Shown one piece after another: positions 17,154-60,870 of a DNA stretch of 64,000 bases. The translations under genes were made by a program, and so were the position numbers. Position 1 is the stretch's first letter, and every line of letters starts with the position of its first letter. The notes under the pieces were generated by a model. It was not told where the DNA came from, made no database searches, and saw only the letters and a list, made by a program, of their open reading frames with translations. This DNA comes from an uncultured Chitinophaga sp. GTDB taxonomy: Bacteria > Bacteroidota > Bacteroidia > Chitinophagales > LD1. Location of the stretch: the NCBI GenBank assembly GCA_964493695.1, contig CAZBPG010000007.1:329-64328 (forward strand). Reading direction: 5' to 3'.

Positions 17154-20100
17154 TTATTCCACCACCAATCTTCCAAACGCCTTTTGTTTTTCGGAAGTTG
17201 TAATGCTGTAGAAATAAATTCCGGCACTCATGCCCTCGCGGTTAATGGTAAACCGGTTGTCGCTCAGCGCATTTATTTTCTTCAACAGCTTTCCGCTTAC
17301 ATCAAATAATTCGAAATGATAGGCACCGGTAATGCCCTCTACCGTTATTTGTGTTTGTTGTGTAAACGGATTGGGTGCGGCAATCACGGTTATACCCGCA
17401 TCGCTGGTGGTGTTGTGAATAGCATTCGGTTCGGTAAGGCGGCTGCTGACAGTGTTGGTTTTTATCGGCTCGTTGTAATCGAAATAGATGCTGGCACTGT
17501 TTTTAATTTCGGTGTTCAGCGGTAAGCCGTTTTTCTTCTTTATGCGAAAGGTTACAAAGCCCTTGCTTGCCGGTTCGTTGGTGGCGCTGTCTACTAAGAA
17601 AATTGGATTAAACACCCAGGTGAGTATTCCATTTCCCGATACATCGAACGAAGTATACTCATGGCTGCTCGCCAGGTTTTCTATTGTGGCAGGATTGAGA
17701 TAGGAGCTCAGCGTATCTTTCAGAATTATAAATGAGGTGGTATCGTTACCGGTGTTCTGGAAATGAATAGTATAGGTAAGTATACTGTCTTCTTCAAAAA
17801 TATCACCGGCAGGCGAAACTTCTTTTTCGTTAGGGTCCATGGAACCGGTTACCGGTTGCGTATAAATCTGATGATTATCCAAAGTATCGCAATCTCCGCT
17901 GTAAGGCAGTACCCAGAACTCCTGCGTTAGCTGATAGCCGATAGGTGTATTGGCAGGCACGGTTAAAAACACCTGCGGACGGTTAGCCCACGAAACAGAC
18001 GCAGAGGCATCGGCCACCTGCCAGGTAACGGTGCGGTTGCCCGCATTATGCACGCCACCGTTGTTGCTGCTCTGGTAAACCAGAATAGGGTCGTATTTAA
18101 AAATGATAGTGGCCGGACCGCTGTACTGCGGATTGCTTTGCTGCCAAACCAAAATCCAGTACTGTTTGGTAAAACCGGGGTTGGCACTCGTCCAGCCGGG
18201 GTGCAGCGCCAAATCGAAACCGCTTACGCCACCCATGCCCATGTTCACCACAGCGGTATCGCTTACACCGGCAAAAGTAACCGGACCGGTGCTGCACAAC
18301 ACTACGTTGGAGCAGCCCCCCCAGTTGTTATAGGCCTGAAGGGTAAAACTGCCCGCTGCGGGAATTTGAATAGTATATAAACCGGTGTTGTTGGTGTAGC
18401 CGTAATAACTGCCTCCACTACCGGTGGCATATATGCTCATGCCGGTAATAGGTACTTCGCCCGAATCTTTTACGCAATTGCCGTTGGCATCGTTAAAAGC
18501 GTATCCCTGTATCACGTTATGGCACGAAGTATAAATGTAAACATAGCCAATGCGGATACAGCCATCGGCACCTGTTACGGTAACGCTGTAACTGCCGCTT
18601 GACAGACCGGTAAGGGTTTGCGAAGTATCGCTGTTGCTCCACAAAAAGGTGAAAGGAGCAGTGCCGCCATATACGCTTACGGTTGCTGTGCCGTTGTTGC
18701 TGCAATTGGCGGAGGTGCCGGTGGCATATACATAATATCCGTAGTTGGTACTGCTTTGACTGACGAAGTAAGAAAAGGTAGCCTCACATAAAGCAGCATC
18801 GGTAACGGTAAGCGTGTAAGTGCCCGCTACAATACCGGTAATACTATCAGCGGTAGTGCCAGTGTTCCACAAATAGGTATAAGGCGGGCTGCCACCGGTT
18901 ACGGTTACCGAAAGCGAACCATCGGGTATGCCGTTGCAGCTTACCGGATGCGAACTTTGCAGGGCAACGACTACACCGGTGTTCAGCAAAGTATCAGCCG
19001 CTATTTGCACACAGCCCGAATCATCGGTTACCCAAACCAGATAAATACCGGCCTGGTCAACAGTAATTTCAGAGGTATTGGCACCGTTGTTCCATTGAAA
19101 GCTGTAAGGTGGTGTGCCACCGGTTACGTTGGCAGTAAGGGTATCGGTGGTATGGGTGCAGCTTAAATCCTGCGAGGTAATGGAAACCACTAAAGTATTG
19201 TTGGCGCACGAACCGGTAACCACAGCGGTGGTGCTAACGGTGCAGCCGTTGGCATCGGTAATGATAGCGGAGTAAGTTCCCGAACACAATCCGGAAACAT
19301 CTTCGGTAAACATAGCATTCGACCACAGGAAACTGTAAGGCGGAGTTCCACCGCCTACTGTTACATCAATAGCGCCATCGAAGGTACCGGTAGTAGATTC
19401 ATTGATTACAACATGCGTAGCCGTTAACGGTGTGGGCTCGAAAACAGTACCGGTAACAGTAGTACTACAGCCCCACGAATCGGTAACGGTAGCAGCGTAA
19501 TTACCTGCCATAAGGTTATTCATCATTTGCACCGTGCTGCCGTTGCTCCAGCTATAGGTATAAGGCGGGTGCCCACCGGTGGCTATAACCTGCAGGCCTC
19601 CATCATTTCCGCCAGCGCAGGATACACCGTTGGGAATAACCGTGGCCACTATCTGCGAAACCGAAATGCCAACACCCCCGGAGCTGTTGCAGCCGTTGGC
19701 ATCGGTAACGGTTAAAGTGGTATTGTAATAACCCTGGCTGGCATACACATGTACCGGTGTTATAAGGTTAGAGGTGGAGCCATCGCCAAAGTCCCAGATA
19801 TAGGTAAAGGGCGGTGTACCCGATTGTATTTGCGCAACAAAGCTAACCGGCTGCCCCGCACAGGTTATAGTATCGTTTACAAGCAGGGTAACATTTGCGT
19901 AAGGGAAAGCGGTGATAGTTACAAAGTCGGTATCCATGGCGCCTATGTTATCGGTAACTATTACCCGGTAGGTATAAGTGCCGTAAACCACTACCGTGGG
20001 GTTAGCCACCGTAGCACTGTTAAGTCCTATGGTAGGCGACCAGGCATAAGTATACGGACCGGTGCCACCGGCAGCGGTGGGGGAACCTCCAAGGTTTAAA

Positions 20101-20210
20101 GAAGTAAAGACACAAACGGTTTGGTCGGCACCCGCATTGGCGGTTAGCTGTGCGCTGGTTTCGGTTGCCAGTAAAAAAAGAAACAGCAGGGGGAGTAAAA
20201 AATTCTTCAT
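17154..20210 (-). CDS. Large T9SS-secreted surface protein with a PKD domain, about 8 SprB-type repeats and a T9SS type A C-terminal sorting domain
   Basis: 1018 aa. Signal peptide ...TSA/QL. Reiterated GGxPPYxYxWSNG...TVTDxxGC units. C-terminal PNPF...GIYFY...V sorting domain. Confidence 0.85.
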   Translation of the reverse strand: MKNFLLPLLFLFLLATETSAQLTANAGADQTVCVFTSLNLGGSPTAAGGTGPYTYAWSPTIGLNSATVANPTVVVYGTYTYRVIVTDNIGAMDTDFVTITAFPYANVTLLVNDTITCAGQPVSFVAQIQSGTPPFTYIWDFGDGSTSNLITPVHVYASQGYYNTTLTVTDANGCNSSGGVGISVSQIVATVIPNGVSCAGGNDGGLQVIATGGHPPYTYSWSNGSTVQMMNNLMAGNYAATVTDSWGCSTTVTGTVFEPTPLTATHVVINESTTGTFDGAIDVTVGGGTPPYSFLWSNAMFTEDVSGLCSGTYSAIITDANGCTVSTTAVVTGSCANNTLVVSITSQDLSCTHTTDTLTANVTGGTPPYSFQWNNGANTSEITVDQAGIYLVWVTDDSGCVQIAADTLLNTGVVVALQSSHPVSCNGIPDGSLSVTVTGGSPPYTYLWNTGTTADSITGIVAGTYTLTVTDAALCEATFSYFVSQSSTNYGYYVYATGTSANCSNNGTATVSVYGGTAPFTFLWSNSDTSQTLTGLSSGSYSVTVTGADGCIRIGYVYIYTSCHNVIQGYAFNDANGNCVKDSGEVPITGMSIYATGSGGSYYGYTNNTGLYTIQIPAAGSFTLQAYNNWGGCSNVVLCSTGPVTFAGVSDTAVVNMGMGGVSGFDLALHPGWTSANPGFTKQYWILVWQQSNPQYSGPATIIFKYDPILVYQSSNNGGVHNAGNRTVTWQVADASASVSWANRPQVFLTVPANTPIGYQLTQEFWVLPYSGDCDTLDNHQIYTQPVTGSMDPNEKEVSPAGDIFEEDSILTYTIHFQNTGNDTTSFIILKDTLSSYLNPATIENLASSHEYTSFDVSGNGILTWVFNPIFLVDSATNEPASKGFVTFRIKKKNGLPLNTEIKNSASIYFDYNEPIKTNTVSSRLTEPNAIHNTTSDAGITVIAAPNPFTQQTQITVEGITGAYHFELFDVSGKLLKKINALSDNRFTINREGMSAGIYFYSITTSEKQKAFGRLVVE

Positions 20211-20320
20211 AGTGGTTGGTTTAATATGTAATGAACAGGTTAAAGAGCGGAACAGTAAAAGAAAGGTTGTGTGTGCAACTATATTTCTGATAGAAGCGTC
20301 AGGCGGGGAATTTTTTTGGG

Positions 20321-20441
20321 GCGGACTTTAGTCCGCCCTATAAAAAAGATTTTTCCGCTTATCTTGTTTGCGGTCTGATTAATCAGACCGCAAGGCAAGG
20401 ATAAAAGGAATATCCTCTGTTTAAACCGGACTAAAGTCCGG
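20321..20441. ncRNA. Copy B of the three-hairpin structured element
   Basis: GCGGAC-TTTA-GTCCGC, TTGCGGTCTGA-TTAA-TCAGACCGCAA, CCGGAC-TAAA-GTCCGG, plus the conserved linker blocks. 2 mismatches in ~121 nt against copy C. Confidence 0.45.
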
Positions 20442-20523
20442 GATATACGTTTGGGTCTGTTGCAGACGACCCTGCGCGAGTTGAATAGCCGCAGGGTTCT
20501 GAAGCGGAAACCCGGGGAAAGAA

Positions 20524-20644
20524 GCGGACTTTAGTCCGCCCTATAAAAAAGATTTTTCCGCTTATCTTGTTTGCGGTCTGATTAATCAGACCGCAAGGCA
20601 AGGATAAAAGGAATATCCTCTGTTTAAACCGGACTGAAGTCCTG
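20524..20644. ncRNA. Copy C of the three-hairpin structured element (tandem to copy B, 203-bp offset)
   Basis: Near-identical to copy B, while the inter-copy sequence has diverged strongly. Confidence 0.45.
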
Positions 20645-20770
20645 GATTCACATTTTTGGGGAGGCACACAGAACAAAAGAATAGCGGCAAAAGATTGTTA
20701 TGCGGCAGTAAGCCCGCCACCGCAAGGCCGTCTGTAAGCAGATAACAGTAAGATATGCGTTATTACATAC

Positions 20771-21022
20771 TTCCGAAAATTCAGAACTAAATAAAAATAT
20801 AAAATTTAGCATTTCTGAATTTACAGAAATTATACTTAGCTAATTAGATAATAATTCCGCATTTTCAGAACTATTAAAATATAATTTATACCTCAATTCA
20901 GAATATACCGAAAAATTAGTAAATATAGTATTAAATATTTCGGAATTTACCGAATCATAACAATTGAAATTTTAATTCAATTCGGAATATTCTGAATTTA
21001 TAAAAAATCTTTCTACCTTGCA
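20771..21022. repeat. Phased array: six 42-bp units, each a conserved 17-mer TTCNGAAWWTWCNGAAN followed by 25 bp of variable AT-rich DNA
   Basis: 17-mers start at 20771, 20813, 20855, 20897, 20939 and 20981 (every interval exactly 42 bp). The region is strikingly AT-rich by eye. Confidence 0.9.
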
Positions 21023-21065
21023 TATTCAATACCCTAAATGCCATAAACCGTCAAACTTATAGCCT

Positions 21066-21758
21066 ATGTTAGACCCTATTCGCTTAGTTACTGATCTTTT
21101 TAAAGAAAAGAACTTGTCTGATGCTAACCTCCGAACGTTTGCCGAAGTCTTCCTGATTCGCCTTTCGCAACCCGACAACAACCCGGGCGGCATCTACAAC
21201 CAGCTACTGCTTAACACTACCACTTTATATCAAAACTATTACGGCACCATTACCAACCAGCTTACCAAAGAAGCTATAGGGCAGGGCACCACCATTGCCA
21301 TGAACAATGCGCGGGCAAAGGTAATTGCCAAGCTGAGTTCGCTGCAAGGGTTGGTGCAGTTTAAGTTTGGCGAAAGCAGCGCCATATATCAGGAGTTTTA
21401 CCCGCGGGGTATGAAGGAATACCACCACGCTACTATTGACGGCCTTACTACTCCGCTCATGCGCTACCGCACTACCGCTGCCCTGCGCCTTAATGCCGAC
21501 TATCCGGGCGAGGTAACGGAGGTAACCGGCCTTATCAATAGTTTTTTAGACGCGCGCAAAACACAGGAACTGGTGTATGCAGAGGTAGATGCCATAGCCA
21601 CCGGCCGGCACACACACCGCAAGAAACTTACGCTGCAACTTACTAAATGCTTTCTGGTAATAGCCAGCGACCATCTCGAAAACCCCGACCAGTTTGATAA
21701 TTATTACGAACCGCGGTATTTGCCAATAAGAAAAGGGAAGAAGAAAGAGAAGGGTTGA
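21066..21758 (+). CDS. Hypothetical protein (orphan, no family recognised), basic C-terminal tail
   Basis: 230-aa ORF, visibly GC-richer than the upstream array. Ends RKGKKKEKG. Its stop codon abuts the kbl stop with zero spacer. Confidence 0.55.
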   Translation: MLDPIRLVTDLFKEKNLSDANLRTFAEVFLIRLSQPDNNPGGIYNQLLLNTTTLYQNYYGTITNQLTKEAIGQGTTIAMNNARAKVIAKLSSLQGLVQFKFGESSAIYQEFYPRGMKEYHHATIDGLTTPLMRYRTTAALRLNADYPGEVTEVTGLINSFLDARKTQELVYAEVDAIATGRHTHRKKLTLQLTKCFLVIASDHLENPDQFDNYYEPRYLPIRKGKKKEKG

Positions 21759-22943
21759 TTACTTAATCACACCCAGCTCCTTACCCACCTTGGTAAACGC
21801 AGCAATACATTTATCTAAATGTTCGCGTTCGTGAGCGGCACTTACCTGCACCCTTATGCGCGCCTTGCCCTTCGCCACCACCGGAAAGAAGAACCCTATT
21901 ACATAAATGCCTTCGTCTAAAAGCTTGGCGGCAAAGTTTTGTGCCAGCACGGCATCGTAAAGCATCACCGGTGTAATAGGATGCACACCGGGCTTAATGT
22001 CGAAACCGGCACCGGTCATCTTTTCGCGAAAATAACGGGTGTTAGTTTCCAGCTTATCGCGCAGGGCAGTGGTTTCGCTCAGCATATCCAGCACGGCAAT
22101 ACTCGCCCCCACAATAGCGGGCATTAACGTATTGCTGAACAAATACGGCCGCGAACGCTGACGAAGCAGCTCAATAATTTCTTTTTTACCCGAAGTAAAA
22201 CCACCGCTTGCTCCGCCCAGTGCTTTGCCCAGCGTACCGGTGATGATATCTATTTTGCCATGTACCCCGCAATACTCCGGTGTACCGCGACCGGTCTTGC
22301 CAATAAAGCCCGAAGCGTGACATTCATCTACCATTATCATCGCATTATACTTATTGGCCAATGCTACAATTTTATCCAGTTGTGCAATCGTTCCATCCAT
22401 GCTGAACACGCCATCGGTAACAATAATGCGCGACCGGTTCTTTTGCGTGGCAATCAGTTGCGTTTCCAAATCTTCCATGTCGTTATTCTTATAACGCAAA
22501 CGCTCAGCTTTACACAAGCGCACACCGTCAATGATGGAAGCATGATTCAATTCATCTGAAATAATTGCATCTTCTTCGTTGAACAAAGGTTCAAACACAC
22601 CACCGTTGGCATCGAAAGCCGCGGCATAAAGTATAGTATCTTCTGTCCACAAAAACTCCGAAATTTTTTGCTCCAGTTCTTTATGAATATCCTGTGTGCC
22701 GCAAATAAAACGCACACTGCTCATGCCATAGCCGTGGGTGTCAATTGTTTTTTTGGCAGCTTCAATAACCTTAGGATGAGAGCTTAACCCCAAATAATTA
22801 TTGGCGCAGAAATTAAGGACGGTCTTTCCGCCAACACTAATTTCGGCCGCTTGCGGAGAGGCGATAATGCGTTCGGTTTTATAAAGCCCGCTGGCTTTAA
22901 TTTCTTCTACATCTTTTTGTAATCGCTGCTGAATGGAATACAT
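21759..22943 (-). CDS. kbl: Glycine C-acetyltransferase (2-amino-3-ketobutyrate CoA ligase)
   Basis: 394 aa. Class II aminotransferase with the PLP-lysine region ([17 protein letters not shown]) typical of Kbl. Confidence 0.9.
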
Positions 22944-22945
22944 GG

Positions 22946-23281
22946 TTAAGGTTTTACTCTTCGTAATTTTTTAAGTTGAACGGGACTTCGTTTGCCATGA
23001 AAAATATCAAGTACCCAAACTTCAGTCTTCACAATCTTGTAAATTATTTTGTAAGTAGAAGCATAAACTGCTTTGCGGTAAACGTGATTTTTGGTGGGAA
23101 GTTCCGGACATTCGGGATAAGCATATGGATGTTGCCAAAGAGAATTTCCTAAATCCTGAATTTCTGAATCTACTCTGTCCGCTTGCCGCACGGAATCTAA
23201 AGCGATAAATTCATACACCGACTGAAGAGATAATTTGGCATGGTTTGTCCAAACTATTTGTAGCCTCTTTGTTTCTTCCAT
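22946..23281 (-). CDS. Type II toxin-antitoxin system RelE/ParE family toxin
   Basis: 111 aa. ParE-like pattern ([11 protein letters not shown]..., YRKAVY..YKIIYKI....[11 protein letters not shown]). Confidence 0.7.
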
Positions 23282-41787: not shown

Positions 41788-41978
41788 TTAACGACAGATA
41801 TGACGACAGCTTAACGATAAACCACGACAACTGAACGACAATGCACGAAAGGTTAACGATAAACCACGACAGCTTAACGACAATGCACGAAAGGCTAACG
41901 ACAAACCGCGACAGTTTAACGACAATTCACGCAAGGCTAACGATAAACCACGACAGCTTAACGACAATCCAAAGCAAG
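41788..41978. repeat. Tandem array of nine 21-bp units (YTAACGAYAA-N-CACGA...), alternating two subtypes to give a 42-bp higher-order repeat
   Basis: Unit starts at 41788, 41811, 41832, 41853, 41874, 41895, 41916, 41937 and 41958. Two degenerate units lie upstream at ~41736 and ~41759. Confidence 0.9.
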
Positions 41979-60110: not shown

Positions 60111-60515
60111 TAAAAAAAGACCTGTTAGTCTTTCTCAGGGTAAATCCTTCAGGGCAATGGCATTAGGTTAAGGGGCAAAGTAAAAAATAAAAAGCTATGA
60201 TTATTACTTTTTGAGTGTCCGCACCCCAAAAAAATTCCGATTCCCTTGTTTTGGCAACATACACTCGTATTAAACGAATTGCTTTTGTTCCCCCCAAAAA
60301 CAACTACACCGCTAAAATTGACCACAAACAAAGCTAACCTCAAACCATCCCTAAAATTTCTTCGGGCTTCCCAGCCACCAACACCAAGGGCGGAATTACT
60401 TTCCGCTTCTCGCTGGCAGATTAAAAGAACCTCTTAGAAAGACAAAAAGCATTCGAAAAACAACAAAATCGTCTGTTTTTCGGGTTTCACGAAGCGGAGG
60501 GGAGGTCTCACCAAT

Positions 60516-60870
60516 CATTGCGGAAGACTCCTGAATGGTTCGGGAAGGCTCACCAGCCATTGCGGAAGACTCCCGAATGGTTCAGGAAGACTCACCAGCC
60601 ATTGCGGAAGGCTCCCGAATGGTTCAGGAAGACTCACCAGCCATTGCGGAAGGCTCCCGAATGGCTCAGGAAGACTCACCAGCCATTGCGGAAGGCTCCC
60701 GAATGGTTCAGGAAGACTCACCAGCCATTGCGGAAGGCTCCCGAATGGCTCAGGAAGACCCACCAGCCATTGCGGAAGGCTCCCGAATGGCTCAGGAAGA
60801 CTCACCGACCATTGCGGAAGACTCCTGAATGGTTCGGGAAGGCTCAACAACCATTGCGGGAGGCCCCGTA
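60516..60870. repeat. Tandem array of about 8.5 copies of a 42-bp unit (CATTGCGGAAGGCTCCCGAATGGTTCAGGAAGACTCACCAGC)
   Basis: CATTGCGG starts at 60516, 60558, 60600, 60642, 60684, 60726, 60768, 60810 and 60852 (all 42 bp apart). There is an internal 21-bp half-periodicity (GGAAGRCTC twice per unit). Confidence 0.95.

Follow-up and report, generated by a model that had tools for sequence, protein, structure and literature searches.

Phased arrays of dimer sites are already known in bacteria, from sopC, iterons, Lrp and CodY. Lrp at pap and ilvIH, and likewise NarL, occupy several helically registered sites upstream of a promoter in a cooperative manner and bend the DNA, and high-affinity NarL sites are inverted heptamers in a 7-2-7 layout. 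To our knowledge, no strictly 42-bp array that is conserved together with a target gene family across phyla has been described for regulators of the Lrp or NarL kind. Iterons are direct repeats at ~22 bp, which are bound by winged-helix Rep proteins and adjoin DnaA boxes on a replicon. In the sopC locus of the F plasmid, a 43-bp unit is repeated twelve times, and the 16-bp inverted repeat within each unit binds a dimer (PMC3177203). The overlapping CodY operator is 24 nt long, AATTTTCWGAAAATTCWGAAAATT, and consists of two 15-nt sites offset by 9 bp, on which two dimers cooperate (PMC10415144). In Bacteroidota, an intergenic tandem repeat that influences neighbouring transcription has been described as BrickBuilt, a minisatellite or MITE of Porphyromonas gingivalis (PMC4596501).

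The window analyzed here, i.e., the whole 64-kb stretch of DNA, is chromosomal Bacteroidota DNA. Reading of the sequence between positions 20300 and 21500 revealed an array of six 16-bp boxes of the form TTCNGAAWWTNCNGAA, starting at 20771, 20813, 20855, 20897, 20939, and 20981, with a start-to-start distance of exactly 42 bp in 5/5 intervals. We interpret this array as a candidate cis-acting, helically phased protein-binding platform that would control the gene at 21066–21758, and we assign this reading a probability of roughly 55%. The array as a whole (20771–20996, no strand assigned) comprises the six boxes and five 26-bp spacers, the latter not conserved. Box 1 (TTCCGAAAATTCAGAA, 20771–20786) is a 7-2-7 imperfect palindrome, as is the general layout of the boxes (two TTCNGAA-like heptamers with 2 bp between them), and it has an orthologous box in the related loci L001, L002, L003, and L066. 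Box 2 (TTCTGAATTTACAGAA, 20813–20828), box 3 (TTCCGCATTTTCAGAA, 20855–20870, with one mismatch in the left half), box 4 (TTCAGAATATACCGAA, 20897–20912), and box 5 (TTCGGAATTTACCGAA, 20939–20954) were delineated by pattern search and ortholog comparison. Box 6 (TTCGGAATATTCTGAA, 20981–20996), whose start lies 85 bp before the ATG, is the best conserved among relatives. A degenerate search for TTCNGAAWWTWCNGAA with at most one mismatch found only six places in the 64-kb window, all within the array. Since the box is a palindrome, these six places count as 12 strand-matches, compared with 0.40 expected and a maximum of 4 over 100 shuffles.

The coordinates, sequences, and spacing of the six units agreed with the original prediction; the proposed 17-bp unit did not, as 16 bp are conserved and the 17th base varies. 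Likewise, the two 7-bp half-sites of a box are indeed 9 bp apart, but the claim that all 12 half-sites face the same side of the helix failed. At this distance the two half-sites are ~51 degrees off, and the twelve half-sites are therefore two phased sets of six. The tract is very AT-rich, as had been noted, with a G+C content of 21–31% versus ~44% for the window. The spacers are ~84% A+T, with A prevailing behind each box and T ahead of the following one, and these flanks extend the symmetry of the box. Identity among the spacers within the array was 0.40, near the random value of 0.37. Tandem Repeats Finder missed the array, since the repetition is confined to the boxes, and flanking or MITE-type terminal inverted repeats were not above shuffles. 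As regards the suggested intrinsic curvature, AA/TT periodicity at 10.5 bp was present in the array (z of 3–6) but is confounded by the box structure, and once the boxes were masked, only a weak A-then-T trend was left in the spacers.

Between the end of the last box, at 20996, and the start codon there are 69 bp; the 44 bp given earlier for this distance counted a trailing spacer. The 69-bp gap (20997–21065, plus strand) is conserved in length and not in sequence, and we presume that it is the site of the promoter and 5' UTR of the downstream gene. A sigma-70 scan, a search for TANNTTTG matches, and a check by eye for sigma-54 elements gave nothing convincing or conserved, and no recognizable Bacteroidota (TTTG / TAnnTTTG), sigma-70, or sigma-54 promoter was found in the gap. 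The -7-like box TAAGTTTG on the minus strand (21052–21059), which had been put forward as a promoter firing through the array, is present, but it is conserved in no ortholog and is no commoner than chance, with 46 TANNTTTG matches in the window versus 68 expected. It was not counted as part of the element.

Upstream of the array lies a gene for an SprB/PKD adhesin of 1018 aa with a T9SS sorting domain (17154–20210, minus strand). Two copies of a 132-nt hairpin-rich repeat (20321–20452 and 20524–20655) are located between the start of the adhesin gene and the array. These copies are 96% identical and 203 bp apart, have three strong hairpins each, and include a perfect 26-nt palindrome, TTGCGGTCTGATTAATCAGACCGCAA. 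With an RNA fold z of -8.2 and no Rfam match, the 132-nt repeat looks like a REP/MITE-type element. Downstream, the gene at 21066–21758 is followed by genes for an aminotransferase, a ParE toxin, a rhodanese, an M28 peptidase, a PD-(D/E)XK protein, and CysRS. The ParE-family toxin gene (22946–23281), between the aminotransferase and rhodanese genes, is missing from the syntenic loci L002 and L006, and an adjoining ORF of 84–93 aa could be an antitoxin. Two more 42-bp tandem arrays are found in the window. The first, at 60507–60868, consists of 8.6 copies of another 42-bp unit with 92% matches; it is intergenic, ~490 bp upstream of a minus-strand cytochrome c gene and a nosZ-like gene, and two spurious ORFs (111 and 117 aa) extend across the repeat. 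On the minus strand, each of its units contains three TTCNNGA/TTCCGCA words, spaced 11, 10, and 21 bp. The second, at 41803–41971, is a 21/42-bp tandem repeat (TAACGAYAAACCACGACAGCT...), which is not palindromic and lies between the genes for a TonB-dependent receptor and a T9SS-sorted esterase.

The gene downstream of the array (21066–21758, plus strand) encodes a 230-aa all-helical protein with a basic C-terminal tail, and it is the array's only constant neighbour. We denote its family FAM1. The window protein, a short-form member, had no match in Pfam, NCBIfam, PHROG, or PADLOC; the long-form member P0027 gave nothing above chance in the same four collections, and a PDB profile search with the long-form alignment yielded weak, uninformative matches only. 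The gene had been called an orphan ORF, which it is not. Word-indexed searching gave 29 relatives (46–100% identity). With an exhaustive profile search, the family grew to 736 clusters (50% identity level) at E ≤ 1e-3, of which 436 remained at E ≤ 1e-10. The members occur in a short form of ~230 aa and a long form of ~320 aa. Confident AlphaFold models of the family (pLDDT of 87 and 96) are predicted helical bundles with two helices of ~57 residues, to which the long form adds a C-terminal jelly-roll domain. The short-form model had no Foldseek match, while for the jelly-roll Foldseek gave a generic PirA / TcdA1-like similarity only. Neither a helix-turn-helix, a ribbon-helix-helix, nor any other known DNA-binding fold was seen in the models.

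Next, we compared the array with the described systems. In layout it is nearly that of sopC, with many tandem units of about four helical turns (43 bp there, 42 bp here) and one 16-bp inverted repeat per unit (PMC3177203). However, sopC units are conserved over their whole length, while here only the boxes are; and sopC follows sopAB on a plasmid and serves segregation, while the array is chromosomal and promoter-proximal. The resemblance to iterons (RK2, pPS10, R6K) lies in repeats of ~16–17 bp in AT-rich DNA, an adjoining gene of ~230 codons, and a spacing in whole turns. The array could therefore be suspected to be a replication origin of the iteron type, or a partition centromere, of a plasmid-like or integrated element, and the ParE toxin gene 2 kb away would suit such an element. 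We consider this extremely unlikely. The locus is chromosomal and its housekeeping synteny is kept across genera; the array consists of palindromes at 42 bp, whereas iterons are direct repeats at about half that distance; and the gene beside it has no match to Rep proteins (Rep_3, RepA, Pi type) in Pfam/NCBIfam or Foldseek. No Rep, ParA, or ParB gene was annotated by Pfam among the 10 neighbouring genes, and neither parA (Walker ATPase) nor parB (HTH, CTP-binding) was found among these or in the loci of relatives. No DnaA box was found within 19640–21762, and there is no GC-skew switch beyond gene-strand effects. The replication sense of the original iteron proposal was not supported.

Among transcription regulators, CodY and NarL offer likenesses. 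The box TTCNGAAWWTTCNGAA is the core of the overlapping CodY operator, and T-rich and A-rich flanks are found in both (PMC10415144). The CodY motif is AATTTTCWGAAAATT, often as two sites overlapping by 6 nt, and the core of the 24-nt overlapping consensus matches that of the box exactly; thus, a sequence such as the box can be a two-dimer site. However, CodY (GAF + wHTH) is a regulator of Firmicutes (and Synergistetes), and no CodY gene was seen in the window. Moreover, CodY sites are not known to come in sixes with a 42-bp spacing, and distant relatives of the window array use quite different palindromes. We know of no CodY in Bacteroidota. The 7-2-7 layout is shared with the high-affinity NarL sites; however, the sites of Lrp and NarL are ~30 bp apart or irregular, and their consensus sequences differ from the box.

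To follow the array through evolution, FAM1 loci were fetched through the protein alone, so that the DNA pattern could not bias their choice. In 9/9 of the loci thus retrieved that had enough upstream DNA (L001, L002, L003, L006, L008, L009, L199, L200, and L204), an array is located directly upstream of the gene. At about 58–80% protein identity, relatives still have six boxes in 42-bp phase, the last of which starts 85 bp before the ATG. L001 (80% protein identity), L002 (63%), and L003 (64%) have six boxes each, whose starts precede the ATG by ~295, 253, 211, 169, 127, and 85 bp, just like those of the window. L066 also has six boxes, at a distance to the ATG of 127 bp, i.e., 85 + 42, and hence in phase. 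The array of L006 is reduced to three boxes, in register, and that of L008 comprises seven boxes of TTCGGTATTTACCGAA. In L009 and L010, which encode the long form, ten 42-bp repeats with the box TTCCGAAAAGTCGGAA are conserved as whole units. In distant members the period is kept and the palindrome is changed, to GTCAGAAWWTTCTGAC in L204, to TCCTGAAGCTTCAGGA in L200, and to the all-AT box AAAATAATATTTT in L199. Overall, 42 was the strongest autocorrelation lag in 15 out of 17 FAM1 upstream regions. The short-read contigs of L197 and L198 end 100–150 bp upstream of the FAM1 gene. Gene callers placed spurious ORFs or extended starts over some of the arrays (L009, 4551–4964, a 137-aa ORF; L196, 3839–3998).

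Within the five orthologous six-box arrays, seven box positions (T2, C3, G5, A7, T10, G14, and A15) were invariant in 30/30 boxes, and the identity of orthologous spacers was 0.42, compared with 0.37 expected from composition. The combination of invariant box positions and spacers at random identity indicates purifying selection on the boxes and their spacing only. The gene-distal half of each box is better conserved than the gene-proximal half. The array could have turned out absent or unconserved in relatives; instead, its phase, number of boxes, and distance to the ATG are kept, and only box positions are conserved, which supports the earlier notion of a platform for a cooperatively binding or wrapping regulator. 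The neighbourhood points to the gene concerned. The upstream neighbour varies among FAM1 loci (adhesin, AI-2E transporter, T9SS proteins, and others), while the downstream synteny (aminotransferase, rhodanese, M28 peptidase, CysRS) is stable across genera; therefore, the array belongs to the FAM1 gene. The link to the T9SS adhesin gene that had been suggested dissolves, as the upstream neighbour is different in every relative. A CRISPR array was considered and rejected: the repeat is 16 bp (versus 23–47 nt), the number of units is the same in orthologs, and there are no cas genes.

The same data bear on whether the array is instead a neutral or selfish minisatellite, which arose by slippage, unequal exchange, or a MITE-like or REP/BIME-like route and has no function for the host gene; its palindromes would then reflect the mechanism of spreading. 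Many genomes do hold tandem repeats conserved as whole units, in several copies per genome and often at assembly breaks, and arrays are found in varied intergenic places. Relatives richer in G+C have 42-bp units that are homogenised throughout, as in a minisatellite. The window itself has its two further 42-bp arrays, terminal boxes often end in GAC instead of GAA (see below), and an IS200-type Y1 transposase gene adjoins one FAM1 gene, that of L199. Nevertheless, we consider a neutral or selfish origin unlikely. Spacers of the window clade are saturated with substitutions, yet seven box positions show no variation, and box number and phase stay fixed from genus to genus; an array was carried by every protein-retrieved locus with enough upstream DNA; and no flanking inverted repeats were found beyond chance. 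Box positions 4 and 13 do not co-vary, so that a hairpin structure is not what is kept. BrickBuilt shares with the array that it is an intergenic tandem repeat in Bacteroidota, but its unit is 23 nt without spacers, it is species-restricted, and it has leader and tail inverted ends (PMC4596501). The array has a design of palindromic box and free spacer and a link to a gene family, and BrickBuilt has neither. The whole-unit conservation of a slippage minisatellite of the BrickBuilt type is absent in the window array and present in L009, L101, and L200. Accordingly, the original contrast with slippage satellites holds in the window clade and is not absolute. As for REP/BIME elements with RAYT, the Y1_Tnp gene beside the FAM1 gene of L199 has no counterpart in the window neighbourhood, and positions 4 and 13 are complementary in 46% of FAM1 boxes. 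In L199, the transposase gene (1510–1908) is directly downstream of the FAM1 gene that has the all-AT-box array.

The array could also act at the RNA level, with repeated hairpins in a long 5' leader, or in a divergent or antisense transcript, that affect stability or translation or serve as the binding site of a protein. A short hairpin can form from each box, GC-richer arrays have a second small inverted repeat in the spacer, and folding of both strands gave energies below those of shuffled sequences (z = -3.7 and -5.1). However, any array of palindromes will fold with low energy as a matter of course, and the stems in the window would be 3–7 bp, mostly of A-U pairs. No Rfam 15 family matched at E ≤ 1 in 19500–22000, nor at E ≤ 0.1 at the arrays of 8 other loci. 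Mismatches in the boxes are symmetric relative to the gene strand (43 of the G.U type versus 30 of the A.C type), i.e., without the strand asymmetry between G.U and A.C that RNA pairing would leave. Further, RNA offers no reason for a period to be fixed at 42 (or 21) bp, which is a multiple of the DNA helical repeat. An RNA element is thus very unlikely. The absence of co-variation between the N positions of the box, 4 and 13, together with the symmetric mismatches, fits recognition of duplex DNA and not an RNA hairpin, as expected if the array is a protein-binding platform.

A scan for pairs of boxes at a distance of 42 bp, in a single genome of each species, gave at least 120 loci. Among the matches listed, ~75 have 4–11 in-phase boxes and are nearly all intergenic, and the taxa represented are Bacteroidales, Chitinophagaceae, Treponema, Planctomycetes, Verrucomicrobia, Brocadia, Acidobacteria, and Calditrichaceae. 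A second scan, of metagenomes, used the exact box TTCCGAANNTTCGGAA and allowed any spacing from 21 to 51 bp. The spacing was 42 bp in 26 out of 56 loci and in 65 out of 115 adjacent pairs, by far the commonest value; minor classes were 41, 40, 27, and 20 bp. More than one array occurs in several genomes, and these arrays sometimes share a box. Box sequences vary between lineages and even between arrays of one genome, and thus one conserved global regulator cannot explain the arrays. Some arrays in other genomes adjoin unrelated (housekeeping) genes or lie between convergent genes, so that not every array need be a promoter element. No account of 42-bp palindromic repeat arrays was found in the literature searched.

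Several variants were observed in these scans. L021, L063, and L082 contain arrays of the same kind of box with a period of 21 bp, i.e., two helical turns, so that the boxes are almost contiguous. In the arrays of L011–L130, the last box ends in GAC, not GAA, in 11 out of 60, and the first sometimes begins with GTC, which hints at defined array ends. On four rumen metagenome contigs (L143, L170, L175, and L177), the perfect palindrome TTCCGAACGTTCGGAA occurs 8–16 times per 5–13 kb, within ORFs as well as between them; this is a different, dispersed use of the same 16-mer, possibly in a phage-like genome.

The genes next to the arrays fell into two recurrent families. Among the matches listed, at least 7 arrays are just upstream of FAM1 genes (28–68% identity) and at least 9 are just upstream of genes of the Pfam family DUF6261, with a DUF6261 gene farther from the array in at least 2 further loci; metagenome contigs added further DUF6261 cases. 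Two DUF6261 genes that were found without the pattern also have arrays: in Prevotella nigrescens, 41-bp units with TGCCGAAGTTCGGCA, and on a faecal contig, ~41–42-bp units with TTGATTGTAATCAA. The annotated start of the P. nigrescens DUF6261 gene falls inside its array. In the census among the matches listed, the 79 other array-flanking genes showed no enriched family and no shared regulator or recombinase. A homology of FAM1 and DUF6261 was rejected: profile–profile comparison gave a probability of 1–3%, and a weak HMM match to L127 was not trusted. In the literature, a study of daptomycin resistance in Streptococcus oralis contains the term DUF6261; it is not about such arrays.

The FAM1 protein, and in parallel the DUF6261 protein, may be the binder of its own upstream palindromes and thereby regulate itself; further arrays with the same box in a genome would then also be bound, in an extended nucleoprotein structure. 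This would be a special case of the platform model, and we regard it as possible, though somewhat doubtful. Consistent with it, FAM1 and DUF6261 are the only recurrent neighbours of the arrays. Also, adjacent proteins of different lineages have different boxes at an unchanged 41–42-bp period, a coupling that is expected if site and binder are inherited together. In one Chitinophagaceae MAG, two arrays on a separate contig (L085) have the box of the FAM1-adjacent array (L029). A basic C-terminal tail, RKGKKKxK, is found in the window-clade proteins, and the L199 member, whose array has the all-AT box, has a net charge of +32. On the other hand, many FAM1 members are acidic, the confident models contain no known DNA-binding fold and lead in Foldseek to the PirA/TcdA-like jelly-roll only, and the two families adjoining the arrays have no detectable homology.

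Herein, we describe how a phased protein-binding platform might work at this locus, whichever protein is the binder, a separate regulator or the FAM1 protein itself. Each 16-bp box would be the site for one dimer or for two adjacent dimers. A 42-bp repeat corresponds to four turns of B-DNA, so that proteins bound every four turns would line up on one side of ~230 bp of AT-rich, bendable DNA. So aligned, the proteins may touch each other, or may wrap or loop the DNA, and occupancy would then be cooperative and switch-like. The centre of the last box is ~77 bp from the ATG, immediately upstream of the stretch that has to contain the promoter; thus, the assembly would most likely act on transcription initiation. 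From this position, we infer that activation or anti-silencing is somewhat more likely than simple occlusion.

While phased dimer sites are not new, the combination found here differs from the known cases in a strict period of 42 bp, in palindromes that alone are constrained, and in a link to two large uncharacterised families in several phyla. There is a real chance that the arrays mark a new class of DNA-binding protein. Tentatively, the arrays with FAM1 and DUF6261 might be a so far undescribed, cross-phylum class of gene-linked DNA elements, with lineage-specific palindromes of 14–16 bp set at four helical turns (41–42 bp) before genes of two helical-protein families, FAM1 and DUF6261, in which the adjacent protein is the binder, with a fold that is not among the known DNA-binding ones; we hold this possible, though somewhat doubtful. 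If true, the nucleoprotein structure formed by the adjacent protein would serve autoregulation and perhaps, at further arrays, chromosome organisation or silencing. Since the arrays break short-read assemblies and attract spurious ORF calls, recognising them improves annotation. Maps of transcription control in Bacteroidota are poor, with very few operator architectures described. This element, palindromes at exactly 42 bp, is sharply defined and easily scored. The array can serve as bait for affinity capture of a DNA-binding protein. It may help to give a first property to FAM1 and DUF6261, and it provides a handle on the use of helical phasing over ~250 bp in bacterial gene control.
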